A stretch of 64,000 nt of DNA from a virus (lineage: Duplodnaviria; Caudoviricetes). Shown here piece by piece: positions 12,521 to 51,448 of the stretch. The notes beneath the pieces are model-generated. The model saw only the letters and a list, made by a program, of their open reading frames with translations, had not been told where the DNA came from and ran no database searches. Numbering within the stretch: the stretch's first letter is position 1; each line of letters starts with the position of its first letter. The DNA lies in IMG/VR virus record IMGVR_UViG_3300020045_002727, positions 10,136 to 74,135 of that record. One strand, written 5' to 3'. A program made the position numbers and the translations under genes.

Positions 12521-12622
12521 ATGAAAATAATCAGACTGCATATAATAATAGCACTTCTAACATTAGAAGTATTAGTTCAAGACCCTCATATGGGTCATGA
12601 GGTAGCGTGTTTAATGGTGTAA
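12521..12622 (+). CDS. Putative attenuator leader peptide 1 (MKIIRLHIIIALLTLEVLVQDPHMGHEVACLMV)
   Basis: 33-codon ORF between a promoter and a terminator hairpin, upstream of tRNA array 1. Confidence 0.7.
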   Translation: MKIIRLHIIIALLTLEVLVQDPHMGHEVACLMV

Positions 12623-12645
12623 TAATTTTATGCTAAATATATACT

Positions 12646-12677
12646 AAGCCTCCTCTCGAAAGACTGGAGGCTTTTTT
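12646..12677 (+). terminator. Intrinsic terminator / attenuator upstream of tRNA array 1
   Basis: AAGCCTCC-TCTCGAAAGACT-GGAGGCTT followed by a T run. Confidence 0.85.
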
Positions 12678-12723
12678 ATTCGGTTTTTAATAGGTTGACC
12701 GAGATAAAAATAACTTATTATTT

Positions 12724-12811
12724 CTAGGTGTGAAGGCAATTGGAAGCCGACTCGTTTTGGAAACGAGAAGTAGTTAATAGCTCAATGCAGGTTCGAGTCC
12801 TGTCACTTAGA
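12724..12811 (+). tRNA. tRNA-Pro(UGG), unusually long variable region
   Basis: CTAGGTG/CACTTAG acceptor, CTCGT-TTTGGAA-ACGAG, GCAGG-TTCGAGT-CCTGT; C1:G72 and A73. Confidence 0.85.
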
Positions 12812-12820
12812 CAATATTTT

Positions 12821-12892
12821 GCTCCCATCGTCTAGCGGTTAGGACATCAGGTTTTCGACCTGAGAACGAGGTTTCGACTACCTCTGGGAGTA
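12821..12892 (+). tRNA. tRNA-Glu(UUC)
   Basis: Cloverleaf; TCAGG-TTTTCGA-CCTGA. Confidence 0.92.
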
Positions 12893-12937
12893 CATAGAGA
12901 TACTTAGCCTTTAACTCTTTAAAAAGCAAGGTACTTT

Positions 12938-13009
12938 TGCACCATCGTATAACGGCTAGTACAATTGCCTTTGAAGCAATTAGCATAGGTTCGATTCCTT
13001 TTGGTGCAA
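12938..13009 (+). tRNA. tRNA-Gln(UUG)
   Basis: TGCACCA/TGGTGCA; ATTGC-CTTTGAA-GCAAT. Confidence 0.92.
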
Positions 13010-13016
13010 CAAACAT

Positions 13017-13091
13017 GGTGATTGTAGCTGAATTGGTTAAAGCCTCTGATTGTGATTCAGAAGATTAAGGGTTCGAGTCCCTTCTTTCACA
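13017..13091 (+). tRNA. tRNA-His(GUG)
   Basis: TCTGA-TTGTGAT-TCAGA; extra 5' G; two U.U mismatches in the acceptor stem. Confidence 0.85.
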
Positions 13092-13096
13092 CTAAA

Positions 13097-13178
13097 GCTG
13101 ATGTGAGTTAAAAGCGAATGGCAGAGCATCTCCCCTTAGAAGGGAGGACTTTTGAGGGTTCAAATCCCTCCAACAGCA
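13097..13178 (+). tRNA. tRNA-Leu(UAG), atypical (short variable loop, long D loop)
   Basis: CTCCC-CTTAGAA-GGGAG; GAGGG-TTCAAAT-CCCTC; GCTGATG/CAACAGC. Confidence 0.75.
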
Positions 13179-13183
13179 CTACT

Positions 13184-13255
13184 TTCTGATTAGTTCAATG
13201 GATAGAACAGGTGATTACGAATCATCAAATACAAGTTCGAGTCTTGTATCGGGAA
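13184..13255 (+). tRNA. tRNA-Arg(ACG)
   Basis: GGTGA-TTACGAA-TCATC; TTCTGAT/ATCGGGA. Confidence 0.9.
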
Positions 13256-13260
13256 CAATA

Positions 13261-13339
13261 GGGGTCATGGTGAAACGGTAAACACGCAGGTCTTAAAAAT
13301 CTGTGCTTCGGCTTGTGGGTTCAACTCCCACTTTCCCCA
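13261..13339 (+). tRNA. tRNA-Leu(UAA)
   Basis: CAGGT-CTTAAAA-ATCTG; type II variable arm. Confidence 0.9.
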
Positions 13340-13364
13340 CAAAAGTTAAAATATTCACAAAATA

Positions 13365-13396
13365 TTTGCACATGTAAATTATTTGTAATATCTTTG
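13365..13396 (+). promoter_or_regulatory. Bacteroidota-type promoter inside tRNA array 1
   Basis: TTTG 13365-13368; TATCTTTG 13389-13396. Confidence 0.75.
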
Positions 13397-13444
13397 CTTC
13401 ATAATAAAACGAATAGTTCAGTTGATAGGGAACAATTTAAAATT

Positions 13445-13517
13445 TGGTATATAGCTCAATTGGTAGAGCATCTCCCTGATACGGAGAAGGGTATAGGTTC
13501 GAGTCCTATTGTACCAA
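13445..13517 (+). tRNA. tRNA-Ile(GAU)
   Basis: TCTCC-CTGATAC-GGAGA; TGGTATA/TGTACCA. Confidence 0.9.
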
Positions 13518-13532
13518 CAATATTAAATAAAG

Positions 13533-14033
13533 ATGATTAGAAATTCAAAACAAGTAGAGTTAACAAAATTAGCTTATAATAAAGGATATAGAGTTTTAGA
13601 AAATGGAGATGTGATAGGACTTAGAGGTAAGAAATTAAATCTTTTTGAAAACAGTAAAGGATATTATTGTTTCACTATAAGAAGAAAAGATAAATGCCCT
13701 ACTTATACATTTGTTCATAAATTAAAAGCCTATCAATTATTTGGAGATGAATGTTTTAATGAAGGAATTGTAATTAGACATTTTAATGGTAACAATAAAG
13801 ATAACTCAGATATTAATATTAAAATTGGAACTCAATTTGATAACATGATGGATATGACACCATTACAGAGAAAGTTAAATGCGAGTAGTCCTATTCATAA
13901 TCATTCTGAAATATTGAAAGATAGAGAATCTGGAATGACATATAGAGAAATACAAGAAAAATACAATATTTCATCTAAAGGAACAATTAGTTTTATTGTA
14001 AACAAATCAATGAAGAAAGAAAAACTAAAATAA
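13533..14033 (+). CDS. HNH homing endonuclease inside tRNA array
   Basis: FVHKL...VIRHFNGNNKDN...GTQFDNMMD; C-terminal HTH-like segment. Confidence 0.85.
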   Translation: MIRNSKQVELTKLAYNKGYRVLENGDVIGLRGKKLNLFENSKGYYCFTIRRKDKCPTYTFVHKLKAYQLFGDECFNEGIVIRHFNGNNKDNSDINIKIGTQFDNMMDMTPLQRKLNASSPIHNHSEILKDRESGMTYREIQEKYNISSKGTISFIVNKSMKKEKLK

Positions 14034-14068
14034 ATGTTAAAATAGTTGCAAGGTAATATTTTTTGATA

Positions 14069-14076
14069 TATCTTTG
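14069..14076 (+). promoter_or_regulatory. Bacteroidota -7 promoter element
   Basis: TATCTTTG 11 nt upstream of the tRNA at 14088. Confidence 0.7.
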
Positions 14077-14087
14077 TACCATAATAT

Positions 14088-14171
14088 AGCGAGGTAGTCA
14101 GTAGATGGTAGCTTGTGAGGCTCATAACCTCATGTCGAAAGACCCCGTGGGTTCGAGTCCCACTCTCGCAA
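14088..14171 (+). tRNA. tRNA with CAU anticodon (initiator-like, A1.A72 mismatch) and extra variable arm
   Basis: TGAGG-CTCATAA-CCTCA; GTC-GAAA-GAC arm; GTGGG-TTCGAGT-CCCAC. Confidence 0.8.
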
Positions 14172-14236
14172 CAAGATTTGTCATCGTTTTTTAAAATTAA
14201 GGATTAATAAGTGACGGCTCGGAAAGACGAGCAATT

Positions 14237-14308
14237 GGTCTATTGGAGTAGTGGTAACTGTACTAGCTTGTCACGCTAGGGTCGGGGGTTCGATTCCCCC
14301 ATAGACCG
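14237..14308 (+). tRNA. tRNA-Asp(GUC)
   Basis: CTAGC-TTGTCAC-GCTAG; GGTCTAT/ATAGACC. Confidence 0.92.
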
Positions 14309-14347
14309 CAAAAGTTTTATAAGATTTTCCTTTGATAAAATCTAAAC

Positions 14348-14421
14348 GCCTTAATAGCTCAGTCGGTTAGAGCATCTCATTTGTAACGAGAAGGTCGTAG
14401 GTTCAAACCCTACTTTTGGCT
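14348..14421 (+). tRNA. tRNA-Thr(UGU)
   Basis: Loop TTTGTAA; canonical D and T arms; two U.U mismatches in the acceptor stem. Confidence 0.88.
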
Positions 14422-14508
14422 CTATTTTAGAAAACATTAATCCTATGGTCGGATGTGAGAACCATATAGCCGTATTTAAAAAACTCACAATGTTTTCTAA
14501 AAGAGTAA

Positions 14509-14619
14509 GCTCGATTAGTGTAATGGTAACACGCAGCAAATCCCAGCTGAAAGAGAGTCATAGAGTAGAAATAATCACTTTATGATGAAACATAACAGGT
14601 TCGATTCCTGTATCAAGCT
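14509..14619 (+). ncRNA. 111-nt tRNA-like RNA (Gly-like acceptor) with large internal insertion
   Basis: GCTCGAT/ATCAAGC acceptor, GTGT-AATGGTA-ACAC D arm, ACAGG-TTCGATT-CCTGT T arm; aberrant anticodon arm plus an extra 8-bp hairpin. Confidence 0.65.
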
Positions 14620-14667
14620 CAAATCGATTGGTTGTGATGACGAGGAGGTCGATGCCTCAATTACAAT

Positions 14668-14739
14668 CGTGTGTTCGTCTAGTGGTCAAGGACGGTGACA
14701 AGTGCGTTGCAAACATGGGTTCAAATCCCATACACACAT
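14668..14739 (+). pseudogene. Degenerate tRNA / tRNA-like RNA with 6-nt anticodon loop
   Basis: GTGTGT/ACACAC acceptor, GTCTAGTGGTCAAGGAC D arm, ATGGG-TTCAAAT-CCCAT; loop AAGTGC. Confidence 0.65.
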
Positions 14740-14850
14740 CAAATAGTCTATTAATAAAAGTTATATCAATGACACATAACAACGTGATTAACTTAGGATA
14801 TGAGAATGTAAGTTCTCCACATAGTAAACCGATAAAATTAATAGACATAT

Positions 14851-14923
14851 ATCCTTATAGCTTAAATGGAAAAGCCTCTGATTTCTAATCAGACGAGTAC
14901 AGGTTCAAATCCTGTTAGGGATA
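14851..14923 (+). tRNA. tRNA-Arg(UCU)
   Basis: TCTGA-TTTCTAA-TCAGA; ATCCTTA/TAGGGAT. Confidence 0.92.
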
Positions 14924-14927
14924 CAAA

Positions 14928-15026
14928 GGGAGATGATAGCGATTTTGGGAAAGGTGAGTTGACTCCTCATCCGTATTCAGGTTGCCACCATGCAACTGGT
15001 GCTGAGTATGTAGCTACATATCTCCC
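14928..15026 (+). ncRNA. Unassigned ~99-nt structured RNA between two tRNAs
   Basis: Nested stems GGGAGAT/ATCTCCC, TAGC/GCTA, GTATTCAG/CTGAGTAT, GTTGC/GCAAC. Confidence 0.6.
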
Positions 15027-15033
15027 CTATTAG

Positions 15034-15107
15034 TGCCATTTAGCTCAGTTGGTTAGAGCAGTCCCCTCATAAGGGAAAGGTCACAGGTTCGAGTCCTGTA
15101 GTGGCAA
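15034..15107 (+). tRNA. tRNA with CAU anticodon (elongator Met or lysidine Ile2)
   Basis: TCCC-CTCATAA-GGGA; TGCCATT/AGTGGCA. Confidence 0.88.
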
Positions 15108-15167
15108 CAAAAAGTCAGGGTAACACCTGATTTAATTTTAAGTATTAATGTAAAAAAATTTACAGTT

Positions 15168-15314
15168 ATGTATAGTAAGATAATTAAAGGTAAGAAAGTT
15201 AAAACTATAAAGTATTCTAAACCATACAGTAGTAGTCAACTATCAGCAATGATGGAATTAACTGATATATTTGAACGTAAAATAAAAAAGCTCAGAAATG
15301 AAAAGCAACCTTAA
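15168..15314 (+). CDS. Small basic hypothetical protein (48 aa)
   Basis: ATG 15168 to TAA 15314, overlapping the next gene. Confidence 0.55.
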   Translation: MYSKIIKGKKVKTIKYSKPYSSSQLSAMMELTDIFERKIKKLRNEKQP

Positions 15315-15522
15315 AAACTTCGTAATCGACATTGGGGATACACTAGGTGGAATCCTCCTAGGTTTATCATTGGATGCTCACAGCACCATGATGATGGTCT
15401 TCGGTTCTTTATTAATAATATTCTCCGTTTATTTCAAATACTTAAACAATAAAAAAGAACCTGTAGAAGGTGAGAAGTTCACCATGGGTGAAATTATTGA
15501 ACATTTAAAGGACATTCGATGA
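15298..15522 (+). CDS. Small membrane protein
   Basis: Two hydrophobic segments. Confidence 0.65.
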   Translation: MKSNLKNFVIDIGDTLGGILLGLSLDAHSTMMMVFGSLLIIFSVYFKYLNNKKEPVEGEKFTMGEIIEHLKDIR

Positions 15523-15875
15523 ATTATAAGGAAACAATTTTAATTCCTACATCAGTGTTGTTGTCTAAATTATGCTCTGAGATAGATTCGTATTTTTATT
15601 CATTCGGTCAAGATTTACCATCTAAGAATAAGATTCAGAAGTGGTTGAGGGATGAATGGGATGTGGACATGAGTGTTCATTTAAACGGTATGTGTGGGAT
15701 TAACATAGATAGTGGTGAAGTGACTAAGAATTACGGTGGTCATTATATTTACAAAGGTGATGTGTACATGCTTGGTTTAACACCGTTTATAACATCTCAC
15801 GAGGAAGCGCAGGAAACGATTATAAGATTAATATTAACTAAATTATTGAAAGAATATGATAACAACGATTTATAA
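15519..15875 (+). CDS. Hypothetical protein
   Basis: 118 aa, ATGA-coupled to the upstream gene. Confidence 0.7.
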   Translation: MNYKETILIPTSVLLSKLCSEIDSYFYSFGQDLPSKNKIQKWLRDEWDVDMSVHLNGMCGINIDSGEVTKNYGGHYIYKGDVYMLGLTPFITSHEEAQETIIRLILTKLLKEYDNNDL

Positions 15876-16938
15876 AAAAGATTCCAATGGTAAAGTTCGA
15901 TACATCACCATTGGTAATTTCGGAGCAGTAATAACTCAACAATCTGGTATTGTAGGTTCTGACAAATTTGTAGAACACTCTAAAACAGCTACTGGAAAGA
16001 ACGTTAGAAGAGCAAATGAAACTTCACCAGAATATCAAGCTGAACTTGAAGTTACAGCATGGGTTAAGGATAAATTAACCAAAGGTTATTTTAGGACAAT
16101 AGAGGAAACAAAATCAGCCGAGGTAGTACTACCTATGTTAGCAAAAGATTTCTTCAAGGAACGTCACAAAATTGACTGGAATAAAGATGTGATAGTGGTT
16201 CAACCAAAGTTGGATGGGATGAGATGTTTAGCATTCGTTTCAGCCGATGGTAAAGTAGAGCTTGTATCACGAGCTGGGAAGAAGATTGAGAACATGATGC
16301 ATATTGAGAAAGAGCTGTCAACACTGGGTGTGGATGTGATTCTTGATGGTGAATTATATGTTCATGGTGAAGGATTCCAGACTAATATGTCATACGTTAA
16401 AAAATATGTTGAAGGGAAGTCGGAGAGGATTATTTTTAATGTTTATGATATGGTTAGTGATAGACCTTATTTATCTAGGATTGATAAAGTTAAAACTATC
16501 ATCGACCATTTGAAAAAAGTAAGACCTTTATTTTACAGCACTGTTGGAACAGAGGATGAACTCAAACAACATTTTACAATTTACATAAAAGAAGGATACG
16601 AAGGCGCAATGGTCAAAATATCTAAATCTGGCTACAAGTCCAACGCCCGTAGTTCCGAACTATTAAAGTACAAAAAGTTCATCGACATCCAACTACCAAT
16701 CAAAGACATCATTCCAGCAGACCAAAGACCTACATGGGGAATCCCAGTGTACTATTGGGAAGGAGCTGATGATGACACTTTGAAATCTGGTACAAAAATG
16801 AGTCACGAAGAACGTGAGGACTTGTTGACCAACAAAGATAAATACATCGGACAGATGGCAGAGGTTAGATTTTTTGAATATTCAGATGCTGGAGTACCGA
16901 GGTTTCCAGTGACTGTAGGTATTAGACTTGATAAATAG
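15856..16938 (+). CDS. lig: ATP-dependent DNA ligase
   Basis: VQPKLDGMRC (KxDG), LDGELY, FNVYD, GYEGAMVK, LLKYKK; OB-fold with PRFP. Confidence 0.93.
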   Translation: MITTIYKKDSNGKVRYITIGNFGAVITQQSGIVGSDKFVEHSKTATGKNVRRANETSPEYQAELEVTAWVKDKLTKGYFRTIEETKSAEVVLPMLAKDFFKERHKIDWNKDVIVVQPKLDGMRCLAFVSADGKVELVSRAGKKIENMMHIEKELSTLGVDVILDGELYVHGEGFQTNMSYVKKYVEGKSERIIFNVYDMVSDRPYLSRIDKVKTIIDHLKKVRPLFYSTVGTEDELKQHFTIYIKEGYEGAMVKISKSGYKSNARSSELLKYKKFIDIQLPIKDIIPADQRPTWGIPVYYWEGADDDTLKSGTKMSHEEREDLLTNKDKYIGQMAEVRFFEYSDAGVPRFPVTVGIRLDK

Positions 16939-16943
16939 GAATT

Positions 16944-17249
16944 ATGGGACATTATAGAGAACCTGTAAAAAATACTTGTCCAGATGTAGACAAAGGTTTG
17001 AGAATTATTGAAACCATCACTAAAGAGGTTAATGATAGAAAGAAAGACCCAAGTATAACTGAATATGAGAGCGATGCTTTATACATCATTGAAAGCTACC
17101 TTTCAGATTTACCTGATATTTTAGAAGGTCTTAGAGAATCTAATTCAAAACTAAGAGATTGGGGAGCAGAAGAAGCAGAAAATTTTGATGCAGCTGAACA
17201 AGAAATAGAAAGATTAAACAATGAACTAGAAACATGGAAAATAAAATAG
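16944..17249 (+). CDS. Hypothetical coiled-coil protein
   Basis: 101 aa ORF in operon. Confidence 0.7.
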   Translation: MGHYREPVKNTCPDVDKGLRIIETITKEVNDRKKDPSITEYESDALYIIESYLSDLPDILEGLRESNSKLRDWGAEEAENFDAAEQEIERLNNELETWKIK

Positions 17250-17470
17250 AAAAGCACGAGTATCTTCGAGAAGAAGACTACTACGAATCAAGAAGCATTC
17301 AAAAAGGTAGAACTGATAAGTATTGTGAAGGATGTCATAAGACGATTCCGAAAGGAATGCCTCACTTGATGCATCATTTTTACCCAGAATTTGATGCTTA
17401 TGCAACACATGTTGAGTGTGAACAGATTTTTAAAGATTCATTAATTACAGAAGATGATGAACAGACCTGA
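17234..17470 (+). CDS. Small Cys/His (Zn-finger-like) protein
   Basis: CEGC...HVEC. Confidence 0.65.
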   Translation: MENKIEKHEYLREEDYYESRSIQKGRTDKYCEGCHKTIPKGMPHLMHHFYPEFDAYATHVECEQIFKDSLITEDDEQT

Positions 17471-17633
17471 ATATAATAATGTTACAGGTAATCTTGTAAC
17501 ATTAATCCAAACAGAAGAAGATAAAAAGTACAGTCTTGAACATAATGTAACTAAATTCTCATCAATTATTTATAATGGTAAGACAATTACTGATTGTGAT
17601 GAAATTAATAAAATATTAGGAGATGAACCATAA
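17457..17633 (+). CDS. Small hypothetical protein (58 aa)
   Basis: ATG 17457 to TAA 17633 bridges the flanking genes. Confidence 0.55.
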   Translation: MNRPEYNNVTGNLVTLIQTEEDKKYSLEHNVTKFSSIIYNGKTITDCDEINKILGDEP

Positions 17634-36575: not shown

Positions 36576-37913
36576 TTAGTTTCCTTCAAATAACATGAAG
36601 TTGTTTGCACCTGCTAAACAAAGACCTCTTTCTGAAAGTCTGTTAACTTTCATTTTATCATTGTCATCAGTATGAACTCCACCAACAGAACCTGTTACCC
36701 AAGTTTTGTATTTACGGTTTTCATTAGCTGTAGCTCTATACTTAACGTGTAAGTAAGGAGTTGCTACTTTATCACCGTCCATACCTTCACCTTCGTAAAC
36801 TTCTTTAGTTCCTACTGGTACTAATAGACCTCTTGTTTTAACTGCACCATCAACTGCACCTAACAATGTTGGGTCGTTTAATAGTTTCCAGTCAGTTTTG
36901 AAGAATGAATAACTTCCTCTAACGAATCCACGGAAACCTAAGTTTACAGCCATGTCTTTATCGTTATCGAACATACCGTAAGAAACTCCACCACCGTAAC
37001 CAGCGTTTAATTCTCCTAGTAAGTTATCAATTCCTAATGATTGGTCACGGTCACAGTAGAACATGTAAGAATCTAATTTACCTTGTGCATCAAATCTTTT
37101 TAAGATTGTATCCCACTCTGGTAATGTGTCAGCAATACCTTGGAAAGTATTACCTCTGATTCCGATTGATTCAAATGCACCTTCTGTACCTTTAAGAGAT
37201 ATTGTAGCAGCGGCTGCGCCTAACTCTGCTGATTGACCTAACATTGCTGCTAATTCAAATGTATCCTCAAATCTACGTCTTGAATCTGTTTCTGATTCCA
37301 TGAACCATAAATAACCACCGTTAGATGTTTTTACCCATCCGATTTGAGATGCTTCTGAACCAGAAACTTCATAGTTATCTTTCATGATAACTGGGTTATT
37401 TTTCAAGATTGTGAAGTCTGTTTCAAGACTACCTTGCATACCTGCTGTACCTTTACGGAACTCTGAACCGAAAGCAAAAACTGTTAAGTTTGTTGTTCCT
37501 AATGCAGTGAATCCAGCTGTTTTGTAAGCAGCTAATGTAAATGTATCAGTGTCGATTGCTGTAACAACCCCAATTCTTTTTGCTGAACTATCAGAAACGT
37601 GTACTAATTCATTCAATCTAAAGTTGTGACCAGCTTTAGTGAATACGTTACCTGACCTTGCTACGTCTTTGTACACTGTGTGTAAACGACCTTTCTCTGT
37701 CCAAATCCATTGGTCAGATGCTACTGGTTTCTCCGCATCCATGATACGAAGCATACCGTTCACAGATTGTGAACCATAAATATTAACCAACTCATCATAT
37801 GTATCTGGAGCATATTGACTTGTATAGTCAAAAAGCGAGATGTAATTTGTTGGAAGCTGCGCCTTAACCGCTGATGGTTGTAAAGCTGGAGCTGGTGTTG
37901 CGTTTAATGCCAT
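36576..37913 (-). CDS. Major capsid protein
   Basis: 445 aa after portal and scaffold; crAss-like pattern (W.EKGRLH, FGSEF.KG, IMKDNYEVSGS, SERGLC..GANNF); highly biased codons. Confidence 0.85.
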   Translation of the reverse strand: MALNATPAPALQPSAVKAQLPTNYISLFDYTSQYAPDTYDELVNIYGSQSVNGMLRIMDAEKPVASDQWIWTEKGRLHTVYKDVARSGNVFTKAGHNFRLNELVHVSDSSAKRIGVVTAIDTDTFTLAAYKTAGFTALGTTNLTVFAFGSEFRKGTAGMQGSLETDFTILKNNPVIMKDNYEVSGSEASQIGWVKTSNGGYLWFMESETDSRRRFEDTFELAAMLGQSAELGAAAATISLKGTEGAFESIGIRGNTFQGIADTLPEWDTILKRFDAQGKLDSYMFYCDRDQSLGIDNLLGELNAGYGGGVSYGMFDNDKDMAVNLGFRGFVRGSYSFFKTDWKLLNDPTLLGAVDGAVKTRGLLVPVGTKEVYEGEGMDGDKVATPYLHVKYRATANENRKYKTWVTGSVGGVHTDDNDKMKVNRLSERGLCLAGANNFMLFEGN

Positions 37914-37942: not shown

Positions 37943-39064
37943 TTATTTTTGTTTTGACCTTCCAAATTTAGCTCTTGTACCAGTACCGATAATCTTATCT
38001 AGTCCTTCGATAACAATTCCTTTGTTATCCCCGTCTGGTTGTGCTGAATTATTGCTTGTTCTGTCTATTGTGATGTTGTTAGCATCCTTGATTAATTCGT
38101 CTGCGCCTGATGCTTTACCTTGTTGATAAGCGGCTTTAACAATCTTATCAAAGTTTTTTATCTTCAATGCATCTGCTACGACTGCATCGTGATTAAATGA
38201 ACCGTCTGCGTTTCTCCAGTGTGGCATTTCTTGTAAGAATGATGGTAAATCTTTCTTGTCTTCTGGTGTCATGTTGTACTTAATATCTAAACCTTCGTCT
38301 AAATTTATCTCCAACCCAGCCATGCTTTCTACTGATTCAGCAATTCCTTTGTCATAATCTTGTTGTTCTTTAACAACTTTTTCATAACTCTCTCTTGCTG
38401 ATTTTGCAAACTCTACTTCGGTTTTAATCTCTGCTGGAATTTCGTTGTAACCTTCAATAGGTTTACCTAATTCTAATTTTAAATCTTCTAAAACTTTACC
38501 TTCATTGGTGATGAGTTTCTTTAAGTTTAATGTTTTGACTTCAATATCTTCTTCTAAATCAGAATCTGATTCAAGATATTGACTTAACTCTAACTCTATT
38601 TCTTTCGCATTGAAAGTAGGGTATTTTAAAGTAAGAATCTCTCTTGCTTTATCAATATCCGACATAGTTGAGTAGTCTTTATTATACTTAACCCATTCTT
38701 CTACTGGTCTCCCAGTTCTTTTAGACCATTCATCAATCGCTTGTACTTGTGGATTCAGCTGTTTCTCCTCAGTTTTAGTTAATTCGTCTAAACTACCGAT
38801 TGTACGTCCTAGCCTCTCGCTTAGAACCTCTAATAGTTTTGAATCTTCTATTGTTGTTTGCTCTTGTGAATTTGTATTGTTTGCGGCTGCTGCCTCTGCT
38901 GCGACTCTGTCGGCTTCTGCTTGAGCTGTTGCTGCTTCTGTATTTTGTAATTCTGCTTCGGCTGCTAACCTAGCGGCTTCTGCTTCTGCGGCTGCATTTT
39001 CTGCATCTTGATTAGTATTTTCACTTAAATCTAAAAATACTTGTTCTTCATTTTCTAATGCCAT
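37943..39064 (-). CDS. Capsid scaffolding protein
   Basis: Acidic, with Ala-rich low-complexity N-terminus; between portal and capsid genes. Confidence 0.7.
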   Translation of the reverse strand: MALENEEQVFLDLSENTNQDAENAAAEAEAARLAAEAELQNTEAATAQAEADRVAAEAAAANNTNSQEQTTIEDSKLLEVLSERLGRTIGSLDELTKTEEKQLNPQVQAIDEWSKRTGRPVEEWVKYNKDYSTMSDIDKAREILTLKYPTFNAKEIELELSQYLESDSDLEEDIEVKTLNLKKLITNEGKVLEDLKLELGKPIEGYNEIPAEIKTEVEFAKSARESYEKVVKEQQDYDKGIAESVESMAGLEINLDEGLDIKYNMTPEDKKDLPSFLQEMPHWRNADGSFNHDAVVADALKIKNFDKIVKAAYQQGKASGADELIKDANNITIDRTSNNSAQPDGDNKGIVIEGLDKIIGTGTRAKFGRSKQK

Positions 39065-45731: not shown

Positions 45732-45732
45732 T

Positions 45733-46401: not shown

Positions 46402-46402
46402 T

Positions 46403-46960: not shown

Positions 46961-47502
46961 TCGTTAACCTCCCCTTTTACTTTTCTAAATACTTTCCAGA
47001 TGCTATCTGCTATTGTTGATACTTTACCAATAATATCAAAACCTGCTCTTTTTAAGTTTTCAAATATAGAGCTATATGCTTCAATAGCTATACATGCTCC
47101 AATTGTTATCTCAGTTAATGTTAATGTTTTTGTCTTTAAATACGAAAAATTAAAAGTCTTATTGAAGAATAAACTATCAACTGTGTAGATTAGTAAGATT
47201 ACCAAAGTGTAACCTATTAACTTCACCACTGATGACCTCATTTTCTTACTCTCTAATATGAAACCTGTATCTGGTCTTACTGCTGTACCATTTTTAACTT
47301 CTATATAAGAAGCTAACACACCAGTTAAAAAGTCAACTGTGTATGCAATAAAGAAGATGGTAAGTAATACTTGAAGTGTTGTAAATGTAGATAATAGTAC
47401 TGTCAAAGACAATAGTATTCTACCTCCCCAAGTTTGAAATAGGAGTAAAAGTTTCATAAATAAGTGCTTAAATATTTCGTAATAGACACTAAAATCTTTC
47501 AT
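46957..47502 (-). CDS. Holin (phage holin family 4-like)
   Basis: Several TM segments; DFLTGV, IEAYSSIFENL; adjacent to endolysin. Confidence 0.75.
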   Translation of the reverse strand: MKDFSVYYEIFKHLFMKLLLLFQTWGGRILLSLTVLLSTFTTLQVLLTIFFIAYTVDFLTGVLASYIEVKNGTAVRPDTGFILESKKMRSSVVKLIGYTLVILLIYTVDSLFFNKTFNFSYLKTKTLTLTEITIGACIAIEAYSSIFENLKRAGFDIIGKVSTIADSIWKVFRKVKGEVNE

Positions 47503-47519
47503 AGTGTTTGTTTAATTAT

Positions 47520-47535
47520 TATCTTTGCAAAGATA
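47520..47535. promoter_or_regulatory. Palindromic back-to-back promoter TATCTTTGCAAAGATA
   Basis: Perfect 16-bp palindrome giving TATCTTTG on both strands between divergent genes. Confidence 0.75.
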
Positions 47536-47558
47536 AACTAAAAAGTAAAACATTAATT

Positions 47559-47807
47559 ATGGGAGATAGTACCAAGTATTACCAAACGAATCCAGAAGCT
47601 CGTAAGAAAAAAGCTGCAACGGATAAGAAGATAAACGCAAGACCTGCACAAGTTAAAAAAAGAACTGAATCAAATGCTAAAAGAGCAGAAGCAAAAAAGA
47701 AAGGTCAGAATATCCAAGGGAAGGATTATGACCATTCTGTTAATCGATTTGTGAAGTCATCAGTGAACAGAGGTAGAGCTGGTGAAGGAGGTCGTAAAAA
47801 GAAATAA
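47559..47807 (+). CDS. Small basic protein (degenerate HNH-like KDYDH...S.NR)
   Basis: Start moved to ATG 47559, downstream of the promoter. Confidence 0.6.
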   Translation: MGDSTKYYQTNPEARKKKAATDKKINARPAQVKKRTESNAKRAEAKKKGQNIQGKDYDHSVNRFVKSSVNRGRAGEGGRKKK

Positions 47808-47808
47808 A

Positions 47809-48402
47809 ATGGAAACAAATTTAATTAAATTAAAAAAATCAGAAGAGGTTAGTACCAAACTTCAAAACAGAACTAAAAACAAAGCTAAAGAATTTAATGA
47901 GGTCATTTTTAAAAGAGTGGGTAGAGTTAAGAAACCTACAAAGACTTTTCATCAGAATTTATCTTATGACTTTCTACAATACATCAGGATTATCTTTAAA
48001 TGGGCTTGTAGCAATTATGAAATTAGTAGACCACATCTTGAATTATTGTTAGGGATATATCCGCTGGGTGTTTTCAAGAAAGCAGAATTTGAGATATTTT
48101 GTAGAACCATTGATATGAACTCTAAAAGGTTATTTACTACAATGGTCGAAGATGGTTGGATTAAATTATGGAGACCTTACAAAAGAGGTCAATCAGCTTT
48201 GTATTGTTTAACTACAAAAGGTAAAGTGATGTGTGGTAAGATTCATAAAATGTGTTTAGGTGAATCTAAAATACCTGAGTATAAATATGGTAATGCTTTG
48301 ATGACTTCTGGTAAAGCAGTTGATAAGTTCTATATGGAAGCTATTAAGAAAATGAATCAAAGGAAAATAGAGGATGCTAAGGATGTCGTAGATGAAGAAT
48401 AA
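47809..48402 (+). CDS. Winged-helix (MarR-like) putative regulator
   Basis: RLFTTMVEDGWIKLW...LYCLTTKGK pattern; start at ATG 47809. Confidence 0.55.
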   Translation: METNLIKLKKSEEVSTKLQNRTKNKAKEFNEVIFKRVGRVKKPTKTFHQNLSYDFLQYIRIIFKWACSNYEISRPHLELLLGIYPLGVFKKAEFEIFCRTIDMNSKRLFTTMVEDGWIKLWRPYKRGQSALYCLTTKGKVMCGKIHKMCLGESKIPEYKYGNALMTSGKAVDKFYMEAIKKMNQRKIEDAKDVVDEE

Positions 48403-48403
48403 T

Positions 48404-48437
48404 AAAAAACCCCGTTGGAGAAATCCTTCGGGGTTTT
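48404..48437. terminator. Bidirectional terminator
   Basis: AAAAAACCCCG-TT-GGA-GAAA-TCC-TT-CGGGGTTTT. Confidence 0.8.
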
Positions 48438-48440
48438 GTT

Positions 48441-49046
48441 TTATACTCTAACAAATGTATAAACTATAGATGAGTTAGAATTTGCACCATCACCTCTATT
48501 TGCTAGAGCGTGGCTAATTACTGTATTTGGGTTTAATGTTGGTTGAGTTCCAACGTCAAAAGTTATAGTTATAGGTGTTATTGCTTCTGCTTTGACTGCT
48601 CCTATTTGTGGTCTACTTGATAATATGATTTGTTCATTTGTCTTACCTGATAATGTGTTTTCGTGAGTGAAAACACGTAATTCAAAGTCAGCGGAAATAC
48701 TTCCAGAATTAGTTACTAAAAGCGTTGCTGATTGCAGCTTGTATTGGTAAGGTGGTAAAACGATACCTATTGTTTGACCTGTTGTTAGAGGGTCGTTACC
48801 AATATTTACACTCATTGTATTATTCCATCCTGAACCACTAGGTTGAGTTAAAAAGTTAGTACTTCCACCTGTTAATATCCTATCTCCGTTATAGAACTCA
48901 GATGCATCCCAAGTTAGTGTTATTACTTCATTTGGTGTGTTTGATGTACTTTCTGACTTGTCGACCAACAAAGCTATATCAGATTGTTGAATGGTTGATA
49001 AATCTCCTTTACCTCTACCATTTAGTGTATATATTTGATATTTCAT
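48441..49046 (-). CDS. Putative tail fibre / receptor-binding subunit B
   Basis: Shares its first 29 aa pattern with the upstream gene; beta-rich C-terminus. Confidence 0.55.
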   Translation of the reverse strand: MKYQIYTLNGRGKGDLSTIQQSDIALLVDKSESTSNTPNEVITLTWDASEFYNGDRILTGGSTNFLTQPSGSGWNNTMSVNIGNDPLTTGQTIGIVLPPYQYKLQSATLLVTNSGSISADFELRVFTHENTLSGKTNEQIILSSRPQIGAVKAEAITPITITFDVGTQPTLNPNTVISHALANRGDGANSNSSIVYTFVRV

Positions 49047-49816
49047 TAGTCTGTTGTTTTTGTGTATTCTATTGTCAAGTTACCAGATGCAGATGGGTCA
49101 AAAGCAATTACTGTCCCTGTACCTAAATTAAGCTCTAAATATTTAATGTAAATGTCATCTACATCAGGCTCGAAAGTAGCTTGTAAATACTTGATAAAAG
49201 GAACGTCTATCCTAATGAACTCCGTTACTCTTCTCCCATCGATAGAAGATAAGGATACTTTTTTATCTATAGGAGTATCTACGTTTAAACCTAAAGTTGA
49301 TGTATTTATAACTGCAACTCCATCAGTTAATGTGAATGGGATTACCTTCCTATAAATTGGCTTACCATCAATCCATTTTCCACCTGTGTTAATTTCATCA
49401 GTGGAGTAACTATGCTGTTTATCTGTATAAATCTTTTGAGGGTAATCTAAGTCTGATATTTGTTCAGATAAATCCGTTTCTGCTGTTATCCCTTTAAAAT
49501 CTGGATTATTAGATGACAACTGAAAAGAGTTATGAGAAAGACTTGTGATAGTTAGTAAATCAAAACCATTAATTATAAGTTGGACATCGGCTGATTGTAG
49601 TTTTACCGAATTATAACTCACTTCATCATCATTTAATACTTTAGTTTGAAATGTGTTAAATACTTCTAAATCTCCTGTTATAGGTCTCCCAACTTCTGTA
49701 CCTGTTAAAGGGATGAAGTTATTAGTATTATCTACTAATAGCTTAATGTCCTCTTGTTGAACAGAGGATAAGTCTCCTTTTCCTCTGTCGTTTAATGTGT
49801 ATATTTGATACTTCAT
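49046..49816 (-). CDS. Putative tail fibre / receptor-binding subunit A
   Basis: FIPLTGT...ITGDLE, YSTDE...GGKWIDGKPIYRK, IEYTKTTD are tail-fibre-type motifs. Confidence 0.65.
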   Translation of the reverse strand: MKYQIYTLNDRGKGDLSSVQQEDIKLLVDNTNNFIPLTGTEVGRPITGDLEVFNTFQTKVLNDDEVSYNSVKLQSADVQLIINGFDLLTITSLSHNSFQLSSNNPDFKGITAETDLSEQISDLDYPQKIYTDKQHSYSTDEINTGGKWIDGKPIYRKVIPFTLTDGVAVINTSTLGLNVDTPIDKKVSLSSIDGRRVTEFIRIDVPFIKYLQATFEPDVDDIYIKYLELNLGTGTVIAFDPSASGNLTIEYTKTTD

Positions 49817-49818
49817 AA

Positions 49819-50556
49819 TTATAAGCAGAATGAATCAACTACTACGTTAATGTCAGCATCTGGGTAGTAATTTATTGTTAATGGGTCTAAAGAATCTGTT
49901 GTTAAGTTTGATAAACTCATCTTACATTGATAGGTATCATAAGTAAAAATGCTGTTGTTTATATTATTTTGGTATATCTTATCTCCTACAACGGGTAAAT
50001 CTCCAGCTCCATCATGGTACACTGGTATGTTCGTAACACCACTCGCTGAACAAGCATCAACTAAAGAAGATTCAGAAACATAAAATAATTTTCTTGTTGG
50101 TTCAGTCACTTTCCAATAAACATTTTGTTTCTCTGTAACCACTCCACCATTATTAGCAATGTAAGTTGCTAAAGCATCTGGAACATCTTCCCATGTATAA
50201 GTGTTCATTAAATCTGCCAGAGTTAATGTGTAGTATGTAGGGATGTTGTCTTGGTCTAAACTTGGGGTTGTCCCACCCCCATTAAAATTTATAAGTGGGT
50301 TCAAGGCTGCTATAACTTCTGTTATGTCAGTACTAACTACACCGTCTATTTCTATCTCACTTAGTAATGTTGAAGGCATGATAGGTTTATCATTCTCAAT
50401 ATAATCTAAACGTAATTTCAACTTGTCTAAATCTAATCCAGAGTTTGTTTGCTCCATGTCAGTATAGACGATTTTAAATAGACCTTTAGCATAAGGTAGA
50501 CCATCTAATGTGAATAATTTTGTGTCATCAATAACACTTGTTTCAAAAATTACCAT
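49819..50556 (-). CDS. Putative virion/tail protein
   Basis: 245 aa; LPVVGDKIY beta-domain; first gene of the fibre operon. Confidence 0.5.
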   Translation of the reverse strand: MVIFETSVIDDTKLFTLDGLPYAKGLFKIVYTDMEQTNSGLDLDKLKLRLDYIENDKPIMPSTLLSEIEIDGVVSTDITEVIAALNPLINFNGGGTTPSLDQDNIPTYYTLTLADLMNTYTWEDVPDALATYIANNGGVVTEKQNVYWKVTEPTRKLFYVSESSLVDACSASGVTNIPVYHDGAGDLPVVGDKIYQNNINNSIFTYDTYQCKMSLSNLTTDSLDPLTINYYPDADINVVVDSFCL

Positions 50557-50581
50557 AGTTTTTTGTTTTTATATGTTTATG

Positions 50582-50589
50582 CAAAGATA
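50582..50589 (-). promoter_or_regulatory. -7 promoter element (TATCTTTG)
   Basis: CAAAGATA on + strand upstream of the ATG at 50556. Confidence 0.75.
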
Positions 50590-50591
50590 AT

Positions 50592-50626
50592 AAAAAAGGT
50601 CTAACCAACTTTATTGATTAGACCTT
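50592..50626 (-). terminator. Terminator closing tRNA array 2
   Basis: Minus strand AAGGTCTAA-N13-TTAGACCTT then TTTT. Confidence 0.8.
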
Positions 50627-50630
50627 GTTG

Positions 50631-50701
50631 AAATCATATTGGGAGTCGAACCCAAACCTTTAATTTTGCAGACTAAATGCTTAACCGTCAGCCTTATGAT
50701 T
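50631..50701 (-). tRNA. tRNA-Cys(GCA)
   Basis: TTAGT-CTGCAAA-ATTAA; AATCATA/TATGATT; U73. Confidence 0.88.
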
Positions 50702-50703
50702 TG

Positions 50704-50776
50704 TGGGGCAGGTGAGAATCGAACTCACTCCTCTGGTTTTTCAGACCAACGCTTCTACCAAGTTAGCTTCTCCCCC
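50704..50776 (-). tRNA. tRNA-Phe(GAA)
   Basis: TTGGT-CTGAAAA-ACCAG; GTGAG-TTCGATT-CTCAC. Confidence 0.9.
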
Positions 50777-50827
50777 AGTATAGCCTTAATCAGTTATAAA
50801 CAATGTTTATAGCCTTTTAAGGTTTTG

Positions 50828-50896
50828 CACAACCCCAAGGAATCGAACCTTGTCCTACACTTTTGGAGAGTGTTTGGCTGCCATAGCCTGAGAAGT
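50828..50896 (-). tRNA. tRNA-Trp(CCA)
   Basis: ACACT-CTCCAAA-AGTGT; CAAGG-TTCGATT-CCTTG. Confidence 0.85.
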
Positions 50897-50901
50897 AGTT
50901 G

Positions 50902-50973
50902 CTGCTCCTAATGGACTCGAACCATTATAAACTGATTAACAGTCAGCCGTAATTACCTTTATACGAAAGAGCA
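50902..50973 (-). tRNA. tRNA-Asn(GUU)
   Basis: GCTGA-CTGTTAA-TCAGT; TGCTCTT/AGGAGCA; G73. Confidence 0.92.
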
Positions 50974-50978
50974 TTTTG

Positions 50979-51063
50979 CAGAAAGTAAAGGTCTCGAACC
51001 CTATGCGAATAAACGCACCACAATCTTAGCAGGATGTGCTGACACCTAGTCAGTCTACTTTCT
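50979..51063 (-). tRNA. tRNA-Ser(GCU)
   Basis: Loop CTGCTAA; long variable arm GTGCG-TTTATT-CGCAT; G73. Confidence 0.88.
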
Positions 51064-51068
51064 ATTTG

Positions 51069-51154
51069 CAGAAGATAGAGAAATCGAATCCCCATCAGGT
51101 ACTACCCGATGCCATGGGGTTCAAGCCCACTTTGTCACCTTGACGGTATCTTCT
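51069..51154 (-). tRNA. tRNA-Ser(UGA)
   Basis: GTGGG-CTTGAAC-CCCAT; 7-bp variable arm; AGAAGAT/ATCTTCT; G73. Confidence 0.88.
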
Positions 51155-51230
51155 ATAATCGTATCGAGACTTCTGACGTAAGCAGTGTATATAATACTTA
51201 CCGAATTAACTCCCTTTATGAGACTCAACG

Positions 51231-51311
51231 TGGGGAGGTGTGGACTCGAACCACTCCCTTGCGGACGGATTTTACAGACCCGTTGCTAAATCCAATTAGC
51301 TTTACTACCCC
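51231..51311 (-). tRNA. tRNA-Tyr(GUA)
   Basis: CGGGT-CTGTAAA-ATCCG; variable arm TCC-GCAA-GGG. Confidence 0.85.
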
Positions 51312-51348
51312 AAAATGATAAAGCCTCCAATCTTTCGAGAGGAGGCTT
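51312..51348 (-). terminator. Attenuator terminator upstream of tRNA array 2
   Basis: Minus strand AAGCCTCC-TCTCGAAAGATT-GGAGGCTT-TATCATTTT; 27 of 28 nt identical to the hairpin at 12646. Confidence 0.85.
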
Positions 51349-51376
51349 AAATTTTCAAACTATAAATAGCTTCACA

Positions 51377-51448
51377 TTAAGACATGTCCTCTCGATAGCC
51401 ATTCCAGCTATAGAAATTAAACGAGTTATATGTGTTACAATTTTTCAT
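51377..51448 (-). CDS. Putative attenuator leader peptide 2 (MKNCNTYNSFNFYSWNGYREDMS)
   Basis: 23-codon ORF; 15 of 23 residues are N/Y/S/F/W/C, the amino acids of the downstream tRNAs. Confidence 0.8.
   Translation of the reverse strand: MKNCNTYNSFNFYSWNGYREDMS

Follow-up and report, generated by a model that had tools for sequence, protein, structure and literature searches.

Putative leader-peptide attenuators ahead of two tRNA arrays in a phage of marine flavobacterial type

Phage tRNA genes are usually seen as aids to codon usage or as substitutes for those host tRNAs that defence nucleases destroy; to our knowledge, the control of their expression has hardly been addressed. The question of what decides when such genes are transcribed is raised by two tRNA arrays in the Caudoviricetes genome of IMG/VR record IMGVR_UViG_3300020045_002727, of which a stretch of 64,000 nt (positions 10,136 to 74,135, called the window below) was analysed. 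The phage is of marine flavobacterial type and its whole genome comprises 74,135 bp. Taking both loci together, it is quite probable that the elements ahead of the arrays are ribosome-mediated (leader-peptide) transcription attenuators regulating tRNA genes; for leader 1 alone the balance tips only slightly towards this reading.

Layout of the two tRNA loci

Both loci have the same order, in which a short ORF is followed by a near-identical 28-nt hairpin and then by a tRNA array. An earlier note on this DNA had described the layout as an ORF, a 28-nt terminator with 27/28 identity and tRNAs, occurring twice on opposite strands, and the coordinates and a copy search agree with it. The features of the first locus are listed here; array types A, B and C are those conserved in relatives (see below).

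12485..12516, plus strand: Bacteroidota-type promoter-like site, with TTTG at -33 and TATCTTTG at -7
12521..12622, plus strand: leader 1, 33 codons plus stop; gap of 23 nt to the hairpin
12646..12679, plus strand: predicted terminator 1 (-15.2 kcal/mol), a G+C-rich stem of 8 bp enclosing an inner stem of 2 bp, then TTTTTTATT
12724-15108, plus strand: array 1, Pro, Glu, Gln, His, Arg(acg), Leu(taa), Ile, Met, Asp, Thr, Arg(tct), Met
12724..13340, plus strand: type-A part of array 1, Pro, Glu, Gln, His, probable Leu(tag), Arg(acg), Leu(taa)
13096-13181, plus strand: probable extra tRNA-Leu(tag), seen in the sequence and folded, without Rfam confirmation
13365..13396, plus strand: internal promoter-like site, almost identical to the leader 1 promoter
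13445..15108, plus strand: type-B part of array 1, Ile(gat), HNH ORF, Met, Asp, Thr, two tRNA-like RNAs, Arg(tct), Met
13533-14033: HNH endonuclease ORF, inserted after tRNA-Ile(gat)
14509-14620 and 14668-14740, plus strand: two aberrant tRNA-like RNAs

The leader 1 promoter-like site is one of only nine full TTTG-N16-22-TAnnTTTG matches in the 64-kb window. Its -7 box is separated from the leader 1 ATG by 4 nt, the distance also seen in eight units of relatives; therefore, with the start site presumed, the mRNA is predicted to be leaderless or nearly so. In the internal promoter-like site of array 1, ATA stands where the ATG would be, and neither an ORF nor a terminator lies between this site and tRNA-Ile. 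It presumably represents a decayed type-B unit, and would free the Ile-to-Met (type-B) part of the array from control by leader 1. In the window, two array types, A and B, are fused behind one leader of mixed composition.

The second locus has the following features.

51794..51801, minus strand: -7 box TATCTTTG before a 97-codon ORF
51471..51764, minus strand: 97-codon ORF, its stop 20 nt before the leader 2 ATG
51377..51448, minus strand: leader 2, 23 codons plus stop; gap of 28 nt to the hairpin
51312..51348, minus strand: predicted terminator 2, the same hairpin (-15.2 kcal/mol), then TTTATCATTTT
50630..51311, minus strand: array 2 (type C), Tyr, Ser(tga), Ser(gct), Asn, Trp, Phe, Cys
51154-51068, minus strand: Ser(tga), found by ARAGORN at a relaxed threshold only
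51063-50978, minus strand: Ser(gct), found by ARAGORN at a relaxed threshold only

Leader 2 could also be read from an ATG further upstream, at 51511, in the same open frame; this longer version has 44 codons and overlaps the 97-codon ORF before it. The 23-codon leader starts at the first ATG past the stop of that ORF, which itself has no PHROG match. No -7 box lies directly before leader 2, and the box at 51794..51801 is likely to be the promoter of its transcript. One of the two Ser genes of array 2 also matches the Rfam long-arm tRNA model, and the homologues of both in the phage Calle_1 carry tRNA-Ser annotation.

The shared hairpin, AAGCCTCC-(12 nt)-GGAGGCTT, is located at 12646-12673 (plus strand) and 51348-51321 (minus strand). 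The copies are identical at 27 of 28 positions and differ in one loop base. They are the only two in the whole 74,135-bp genome; none of 100 shuffles contained a match, and a search across the rest of IMG/VR found no copy. No canonical promoter or TAnnTTTG match was found in the 50 nt separating terminator 1 from tRNA-Pro. The T-tract of terminator 2 is interrupted, and array 2 would be transcribable solely through this terminator, because tRNA-Tyr begins 9 nt past the stem. At both loci, as read from the sequence, a predicted intrinsic terminator thus stands between leader and tRNAs with no promoter after it.

Composition of the leaders in the window and in relatives

In leader 2, 15 of 22 codons specify Tyr, Ser, Asn, Trp, Phe or Cys, which is the exact amino-acid set of the seven downstream tRNAs; all six amino acids and both Ser isoacceptor codon families are represented. 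The resulting match of 0.68 (background 0.27) is reached by 0.14% of 4402 short ORFs, and its run of 10 consecutive matched codons is equalled by 0.11% of them. The array anticodons can directly read 14 of the 15 matched codons, against 19 of 23 for leader 1.

Leader 1 matches array 1 at the amino-acid level in 23 of 32 codons, 19 of the 32 being directly readable by array anticodons, and nine of 32 residues (K, A, V, G, C) have no array tRNA. This match fraction is by itself non-significant (P 0.06-0.10 against background). The leader includes every one of the 10 amino acids of array 1, a coverage reached by 0.66% of the background. The claim of the earlier note that leader 1 has no N/Y/S/F/W and leader 2 no L/I/V/A/H/P/Q proved correct, and both absences are unusual: the former is shared by 4 of 1636 background ORFs of 28-40 codons and the latter by none of 2385 of 19-27 codons.

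For comparison, Cellulophaga phage phi38:1, Calle_1, Maribacter phage Panino, the IMG/VR contigs L093, L095, L101 and L113, and the metagenome contig L124 were used; portal identity is 40-47% for phi38:1, Calle_1 and Panino. All of these relatives contain units of a short ORF, a hairpin and a matching tRNA array, and the design recurs in at least six divergent flavophage lineages. There are three leader types and three conserved array types:

Type A: Pro Glu Gln His Leu Arg
Type B: Ala Lys Ile Gly Met Asp Thr Val Arg
Type C: Tyr Ser Ser Asn Trp Phe Cys

The type-C set of array 2 occurs in nearly the same order in Panino, phi38:1 and Calle_1. The earlier note had proposed that its reading would fail if leader composition did not follow tRNA content in homologous phages. 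It does follow it: scored over codons 2-17, all 15 leaders fit their own array set best (0.62-1.00 versus 0-0.38 elsewhere), leader 1 being scored on its two sets (0.62 for B, 0.44 for A, 0.00 for C). In 10 of 11 units each array amino acid is found in the leader, with matched-codon runs of 7-16. The onset of leader 1 resembles type-A leaders of relatives (R-L-H at codons 5-7), with type-A and type-B residues mixed thereafter.

Between lineages, leaders of the same type have a scrambled residue order and a different C-terminal peptide. What is kept is the composition, a purine box, the open reading frame and the gap from stop to hairpin, which measures 19-28 nt in 10 of 11 units, with the exception of phi38:1 unit b and its 49-nt AT-rich spacer. 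In the IMG/VR relatives, the promoter-plus-ATG module also heads 23 ordinary genes (51-1331 codons), none followed by tRNA, and all eight module matches with an ORF of 32 codons or fewer have a hairpin and tRNAs next. GenBank lists two of the phi38:1 leader ORFs as hypothetical proteins.

In the unrelated Caulobacter phage phiCbK, an ORF of 45 codons, in which 41 of 44 residues match the array, precedes a terminator and the tRNAs Pro Pro Thr Lys Lys Leu Leu Leu His Ala Ser Ser Ser. Another phiCbK ORF, rich in Tyr/Arg/Gln/Phe/Val/Ile/Gly, lies ahead of a matching array. There is a little more reason to accept than to doubt that such array-listing attenuators are a widespread undescribed class among tailed phages whose hosts are unrelated (Flavobacteriia, Caulobacter), acting as tRNA homeostats for each set.

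Predicted switch and alternative explanations

Since each leader spells its array and is followed by a stop signal, more of a tRNA set is probably made only when the corresponding codons are decoded slowly. Three steps are inferred: ribosomes translate the leaders, transcription stops at the hairpins, and the outcome responds to tRNA supply. In the proposed mechanism, host RNA polymerase would transcribe the short ORF, made of codons read by the downstream tRNAs. With fast decoding, the ribosome would move across a purine-rich box, located in the final third of the ORF, to the stop, the intrinsic terminator would form, and the array would stay untranscribed. If any matching charged tRNA were scarce, the ribosome would stall on the N-terminal sensor codons, leaving the box free to pair with the 5' arm of the terminator, and polymerase would read into the array. 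The supply of each tRNA set would thereby be under negative feedback. The sensed quantity would be total charged tRNA, because host tRNAs read the same codons, and sensing of tRNA supply is indistinguishable here from sensing of amino-acid starvation.

Leader 2 contains two segments relevant to such a switch.

51406..51416, minus strand: segment 1, inside sensor codons 11-15
51387..51400, minus strand: segment 2, holding the box TCGAGAGGA (51395-51387)

Segment 2 is a candidate antiterminator because its box is perfectly complementary to TCCTCTCGA, which lies at 51343-51335 within the 5' half of terminator 2. The box-arm duplex has an energy of -15.4 kcal/mol, compared with -7.3 +/- 2.2 for shuffles, none of 300 being as good. 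The helices 1:2 (-8.0 kcal/mol, forming without a ribosome on segment 1), 2:3 (-21.0) and 3:4 (-15.2) make up a complete attenuator topology. Without segment 1, the 2:3 fold (-21 to -22 kcal/mol) outcompetes the terminator, and a modelled ribosome on codons 12-13 lowers the equilibrium terminator probability from 0.96 to 0.38-0.50. In these models, leader 2 strongly fits the full attenuator model.

For leader 1, pairing with the 5' arm of its terminator reaches -10.0 kcal/mol at best and does not exceed that of shuffles; the leader ranks 10th of 12 for pairing with its own arm, and no ribosome position lowers the terminator probability in the equilibrium model. This weakness may be due to terminator 1 being a recent copy of that of leader 2. 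The attenuator interpretation of the earlier note is thus strongly supported for leader 2, by both composition and the full predicted switch topology; for leader 1 it is partly supported, by composition, position and terminator, the antiterminator being weak.

Across the units, pairing of the box with the terminator 5' arm beats shuffles (p <= 0.03) in 8 of 12. It is not unit-specific, because most arms are CCCTCC-like. The equilibrium model gives a switch at the sensor codons in four units (leader 2, phi38:1 unit a, and Panino units A and B) and none in most type-C relatives. In a nascent-transcript model, an N-terminal ribosome results in the 5' arm being held and a ribosome in the last third in its release, in all 11 units.

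The best surviving alternative, which is nevertheless unlikely, is that a translated ORF is coupled to the array in some other way: the ribosome would shield the precursor from Rho or RNases, set its processing or stability, or act with reversed logic, such that fast decoding promotes read-through. The missing equilibrium switch of leader 1 and most type-C relatives, the box-arm pairing that is not specific to the unit, and the AT-rich spacer of phi38:1 unit b (49 nt versus 19-28 nt) would all suit it. However, the G+C-rich stems and T-tracts are those of standard intrinsic terminators, for which Rho is unneeded, and the equilibrium model switches exactly at the sensor codons in the four units named. 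The position of the stop 19-28 nt ahead of the hairpin in 10 of 11 units also speaks against it: the box ends 9-30 nt before the end of the ORF, so that a terminating ribosome would cover the box and not the terminator arm, and by this geometry fast decoding would give termination, as attenuation predicts.

It is very improbable that the ORFs encode small functional peptides with terminators of their own, the arrays being transcribed by leaky read-through. The good starts and conserved position of the ORFs would agree with this, as would the two GenBank hypothetical proteins of phi38:1. Within a leader type, however, only composition and RNA pairing potential are kept, residue order being scrambled and the C-terminal peptides unrelated, and functional peptides would not be predicted to track the array type in 15 of 15 leaders and again in unrelated phiCbK; a hydrophobic stretch apparent in leader 1, of about 12 residues, is too short to span a membrane. 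Least credible of all are chance ORFs in A+T-rich spacers beside the terminators of upstream operons, matched post hoc: the ORFs are short, the pattern was spotted by eye and the match fraction of leader 1 alone has P 0.06-0.10, but the composition and run statistics of leader 2 strongly disfavour chance, as do the correct assignment of 15 of 15 leaders, the recurrence in at least six flavophage lineages and phiCbK, and the 9 nt before tRNA-Tyr, which leave no room for a promoter.

Relation to known attenuators

Leader-peptide attenuation is known in kind, and what would be new is tRNA genes as its output; a literature search found no paper describing this control for tRNA genes. Multivalent leader-peptide attenuators of enterobacteria include ilvGMEDA (Ile/Val/Leu) and thr (Thr/Ile), alongside trpL, hisL, leuL and pheL. 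The phage elements resemble them in a short leader rich in regulatory codons followed by an intrinsic terminator (here predicted), in a candidate alternative antiterminator whose formation would depend on ribosome position, in several amino acids per leader and, for leader 2, in the full 1:2 / 2:3 / 3:4 topology. Unlike in these operons, the output would be a block of tRNAs rather than biosynthetic enzymes, and the loop would close on tRNA supply. The phage leaders contain 6-10 amino acids once to five times each, whereas enterobacterial leaders contain long runs of one or two; the phage elements are also phage-borne, and their mRNA probably begins at or very near the start codon, downstream of a Bacteroidota -7 promoter.

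The pheST (pheM) leader of E. coli, which senses one amino acid, is an attenuator of phenylalanyl-tRNA synthetase and likewise acts on part of the decoding apparatus instead of amino-acid biosynthesis. Its output is a synthetase protein gene, whereas that of the phage elements would be tRNAs, with the leader as a roster of the whole array. T-box riboswitches bind uncharged tRNA directly via a specifier codon and need no translation; the likeness lies in tRNA charging deciding between terminator and antiterminator upstream of translation-related genes. A T-box (RF00230) was rejected, since Rfam searches (the window at the gathering threshold, the leaders at E <= 1) gave tRNA-class and chance-level matches only. 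The leader regions likewise gave no match to any other cis-regulatory Rfam family at the same E <= 1 cutoff.

If the attenuation model is true, it would be the first attenuation loop closing on tRNA supply itself and would explain the splitting of arrays into conserved sets, and leader 1 would have altered its composition to follow the fusion of two array types. The phage would restore exactly the decoding capacity lost to host shut-off, starvation or anticodon nucleases, although a link to anticodon-nuclease defence is speculation. Annotators could then predict which short "hypothetical proteins" beside tRNA arrays are regulatory leaders, and the compact, programmable multi-codon sensor may interest synthetic biologists. 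Two phage-host pairs that can be cultured, phi38:1 / Cellulophaga baltica and phiCbK / Caulobacter, make the model testable. Contigs from RNA libraries of phi38:1 infection, in which DNA carry-over is possible, extend in units a and b from the leader across the terminator into the tRNAs.

tRNA arrays and their leaders in the window

The proposal under study is that the two tRNA arrays of the window are the regulated genes of ribosome-mediated transcription attenuators. The complete virus record, of which the window forms bases 10136-74135, is 74,135 bp long and has direct terminal repeats. Replication and head genes of the window match phage families, and the portal protein is 47% identical to those of the Cellulophaga phages phi38:1 and phi40:1, 50% identical to that of Calle_1 over 84% of the length, and 40% identical to that of Maribacter phage Panino. 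These matches point to an uncultured phage distantly related to the Pervagoviridae (genus Callevirus), a group of flavobacterial podophages. A megablast search of positions 10000-16000 against phage records gave no DNA matches, and a distant blastn search of array 2 against phages returned just generic tRNA similarity to unrelated phages. Single-protein searches of IMG/VR, using as queries the two ORFs next to the arrays, gave no relatives, and an exact search of IMG/VR for the 28-nt hairpin found no copy.

Each array is the last part of a unit composed of a short ORF (the leader), a hairpin (the terminator) and tRNA genes called by ARAGORN:

12521-12622, + strand: leader 1, short ORF before terminator 1
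12646-12673, + strand: hairpin copy 1, AAGCCTCC-(12 nt)-GGAGGCTT
12724-15108, + strand: array 1, 12 tRNAs
51448-51377, - strand: leader 2, short ORF before terminator 2
51348-51321, - strand: hairpin copy 2, AAGCCTCC-(12 nt)-GGAGGCTT, one base different from copy 1
51311-50630, - strand: array 2, 5 tRNAs

The design that the earlier note had described for both arrays, a short ORF followed by a near-identical hairpin and tRNAs, was confirmed, with a single base distinguishing the hairpin copies. The hairpin had no match in 100 shuffles and no third copy in the 74,135-bp genome. With a relaxed threshold, ARAGORN also detected, in array 2 after Tyr and before Asn, two genes for tRNA-Ser with the anticodons tga and gct; the Rfam long-arm tRNA model also matches one of them, and both are present at the equivalent place in relatives, being annotated by RefSeq in Calle_1.

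The leader compositions described in the same note are also correct, and were compared with a background of 4402 ATG-ORFs of similar length from this genome and its relatives, the latter including 80 IMG/VR loci reached by portal alignment, which have no tRNA within 10 kb and served solely as background for ORF statistics. Codons for the six amino acids of array 2 make up 68% of leader 2, versus a background mean of 27%, a value reached by 0.14% of the background; 0.11% has a run of consecutive matched codons at least as long as that of leader 2, which is 10. Leader 2 lacks L/I/V/A/H/P/Q altogether, as does none of 2385 ORFs of 19-27 codons. The match of leader 1 is weaker (fraction 0.72, P 0.06-0.10). 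It contains all ten amino acids of array 1, which is true of 0.66% of the background, and it lacks N/Y/S/F/W, as do 4 of 1636 background ORFs. Anticodons of the corresponding array can directly read 14 of 15 matched codons in leader 2 and 19 of 23 in leader 1.

Some other features of the arrays were observed. An ORF for an HNH endonuclease (PHROG 59/959; 13533-14033, +), probably a homing endonuclease, is inserted within array 1 between tRNA-Ile and tRNA-Met. Two tRNA-shaped RNAs of array 1 (14509-14620 and 14668-14740, +) have aberrant anticodon regions, the ARAGORN call of one needing an 18-nt insert and that of the other having a two-base 'anticodon'; they may be decayed tRNAs of type B (see below), for Gly or Val, or tRNA mimics. 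The 109 nt at 14925-15033 (+), lying between tRNA-Arg(tct) and tRNA-Met, have no Rfam match; their predicted fold is a long closed stem enclosing two hairpins (-34.3 kcal/mol, z = -2.1). The tRNA-Pro gene (12724-12812, 89 nt) and one tRNA-Met gene (14088-14172, 85 nt), both on the + strand, are unusually long and score 29 and 32 bits, at or just above the Rfam threshold. A third tRNA-like cluster (57985-58479) was rejected as a regulated unit, having no leader-like ORF of matching composition. It includes a clean tRNA-like gene (58407-58478, +; Rfam tRNA, 44.5 bits), situated among early genes far from both arrays, for which ARAGORN gives only a two-base 'anticodon'; the adjoining 97-nt 'tRNA-His' call (57985-58081) looks unreliable.

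Leaders and arrays across phages

The comparative evidence is the part that decides the case. The design occurs three times in phi38:1, as a promoter-like repeat, short ORF, G+C-rich hairpin with T-tract, and tRNAs; it also occurs three times in Panino, and is present in Calle_1. A search of IMG/VR with the promoter-plus-ATG motif common to the units retrieved 31 loci. Where the ORF has at most 32 codons (8 loci), a hairpin and tRNAs follow in every case; the other 23 loci, with ORFs of at least 51 codons, are all ordinary genes without tRNA downstream. A metagenome contig, reached via the gene upstream of leader 1, contributed two further units. The tRNAs of these arrays fall into three recurrent sets:

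Type A: Pro Glu Gln His Leu Arg
Type B: Ala Lys Ile Gly Met Asp Thr Val Arg
Type C: Tyr Ser Ser Asn Trp Phe Cys

The expectation that leader composition follows tRNA content in homologous phages was borne out. When codons 2-17 were scored, its own type gave the top score for each of 15 leaders (0.62-1.00, versus 0-0.38 for other types), leader 1 being scored on its two sets, A and B. In 10 of 11 units the amino acids of the array are fully represented in the leader. Between lineages, the residue order within one leader type varies and the C-terminal part is unrelated; kept are the composition, a purine-rich box that is the candidate antiterminator, and, in 10 of 11 units, a gap of 19-28 nt from stop codon to hairpin. 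Selection acting on codon content and RNA pairing, rather than on a peptide, leaves this signature.

The unrelated Caulobacter phage phiCbK, which is G+C-rich and has sigma-70-type promoters, offers an independent case. There, a 45-codon ORF with a terminator, in which P/T/K/L/H/A/S account for 41 of 44 residues, precedes the array Pro Pro Thr Lys Lys Leu Leu Leu His Ala Ser Ser Ser, and the array (Tyr) Phe Val Ile Ile Val Gln Gln Ile Arg Gly lies behind another ORF, which is rich in Y/R/Q/F/V/I/G. A third short ORF with a hairpin (phiCbK 48081-48143; positions 1082-1144 of locus L130) has only tRNA-Glu and tRNA-Asp behind it and fits them poorly (3 of 19 residues, the commonest being Thr); therefore, not every phiCbK unit obeys the rule.

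In the window arrays, phi38:1 and loci L008 and L009, the division of tRNAs into array types roughly follows the first letter of the codon. All C-first codons (Pro, Gln, His, Leu-CUN, Arg-CGN) belong to type A, together with Glu and Leu-UUR; the U-first codons (Tyr, Ser-UCN, Trp, Phe, Cys) belong to type C, together with Asn and Ser-AGY; codons starting with A or G belong to type B. This sorting, which partly follows tRNA position-37 modification classes, may be the reason for separate regulation of the sets.

Predicted switches

By its composition, leader 2 is a type-C leader. It has no promoter of its own and is preceded by a 97-codon ORF with a -7 box at 51801-51794. The sequence TATAGTTTG, right before its hairpin, was rejected as a promoter, being one base off the TAnnTTTG spacing, with no -33 partner and no counterpart in other units. 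Pairing at -8.0 kcal/mol is predicted between segment 1 (51416-51406, sensor codons 11-15) and segment 2 (51400-51387). The box of segment 2, TCGAGAGGA, is perfectly complementary to TCCTCTCGA in the 5' half of terminator 2 (segment 3), and the predicted helix of segments 2 and 3 (-21.0 kcal/mol) compares with -15.2 kcal/mol for the terminator. The entire leader-2 transcript is predicted to fold into the helix of segments 1 and 2 plus the terminator, and removal of segment 1 in the model yields the antiterminator. In an equilibrium model in which the ribosome masks part of the RNA, placing it on codons 12-13 lowered the terminator probability from 0.96 to 0.38-0.50. As an attenuator, leader 2 is convincing on paper.

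Leader 1 is of mixed composition. Its start resembles type-A leaders (R-L-H at codons 5-7), and type-A and type-B residues are mixed thereafter, with scores over codons 2-17 of 0.44 for A, 0.62 for B and 0.00 for C. Its K, A, V and G, without tRNA in array 1, are type-B amino acids whose tRNAs are retained in relatives. The mixture matches array 1, a single array in which part of a type-B block is fused to a type-A block. The ATG is separated by 4 nt from the end of a Bacteroidota-type promoter match (TTTG, spacer, TATCTTTG), a geometry shared by eight units of relatives; judging by the known features of the -7 element, the mRNA would be leaderless or almost so. Within array 1, the promoter-like site 13365-13396 is close in sequence to the leader-1 promoter and has ATA at the position of the ATG; it would drive the array from Ile to Met independently of leader 1. 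The best pairing of leader 1 with the 5' half of its terminator (the 5' arm) reaches -10.0 kcal/mol, no stronger than in shuffles. Hairpins are near-identical at both units of this phage, whereas they differ between units in relatives, from which we suspect that terminator 1 was recently replaced by a copy of terminator 2, weakening an older match of box and arm. Leader 1 is a probable attenuator with a degraded or different switch; as a membrane peptide it was rejected, its hydrophobic stretch being too short.

Among relatives, unit a of phi38:1 and units A and B of Panino gave a sharper switch in the equilibrium model, with terminator probability at or below 0.15 exactly over the sensor codons. 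No switch appeared with this model in leader 1, units b and c of phi38:1, unit C of Panino, or the IMG/VR contigs L093 and L113; this is treated as a limit of the equilibrium model, and the mechanism there as a proposal. In a nascent-transcript model, the box of all 11 units holds the 5' arm while the ribosome is on N-terminal codons, and the arm is freed when it reaches the last third. When all leaders were paired with all terminator arms, the own leader was not consistently the top partner because most arms are CCCTCC-like, and this matrix gives neither support for unit-specific co-variation nor evidence against the switch.

Proposed mechanism, transcripts and precedent

The observation is confirmed, and its interpretation as leader-peptide attenuation of tRNA arrays, put forward in the earlier note, is supported, since leaders of relatives track their arrays and the switch of leader 2 can be computed. 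A ribosome terminating at a stop codon 19-28 nt before the hairpin would cover the box and leave the terminator uncovered, so that fast decoding of the leader would give termination. The signal sensed would be the total charged tRNA for the listed codons, host and phage pooled; tRNA loss and amino-acid starvation are indistinguishable from sequence. An RNA ligase gene (PHROG 548, E = 3e-57; 52784-53752, -) lies 1.3 kb upstream of leader 2, and relatives have an RtcB-type tRNA ligase; together with the arrays, these ligases suggest a theme of tRNA repair and replacement. That the system answers anticodon nucleases is speculation, for which the two ligases are the sole and circumstantial support.

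Leader-peptide attenuation is already known as a class of mechanism. New, as far as found, are tRNA arrays as the regulated output, a roster-like leader with many kinds of codon, and the phage setting. Searches of full-text literature gave no account of tRNA genes, whether phage or bacterial, under leader-peptide control; a paper may have been missed, subscription journals being thinly covered. The phi38:1 transcriptome paper makes no mention of such control (PMC5335546). According to the same paper (PMC5335546), phi38:1 lacks an RNA polymerase and has to rely on that of the host, which fits the host-type promoters and intrinsic terminators.

The RNA data for phi38:1 are assembled contigs of SOLiD runs from 2016-17. 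In runs of two studies, contigs from infection RNA libraries span units a and b from the leader through the terminator to the tRNAs, which is compatible with read-through transcripts; DNA carry-over is a possible alternative. The contig ends fall on the repeated promoter sequence, and are therefore uninformative on transcript starts. In two studies, the contigs at unit c end about 35 nt before the hairpin, with coverage resuming behind it; this gap was not accepted as termination.

GenBank gene calls of phi38:1 overlap its units (36714-36845 and 38163-38294): gp067 is antisense to leader b, and gp071 is called across unannotated tRNA-Pro and tRNA-Glu genes. Several phi38:1 tRNAs (Tyr, Ser(tga), Trp, Cys, Pro, Glu and Met) lack annotation.
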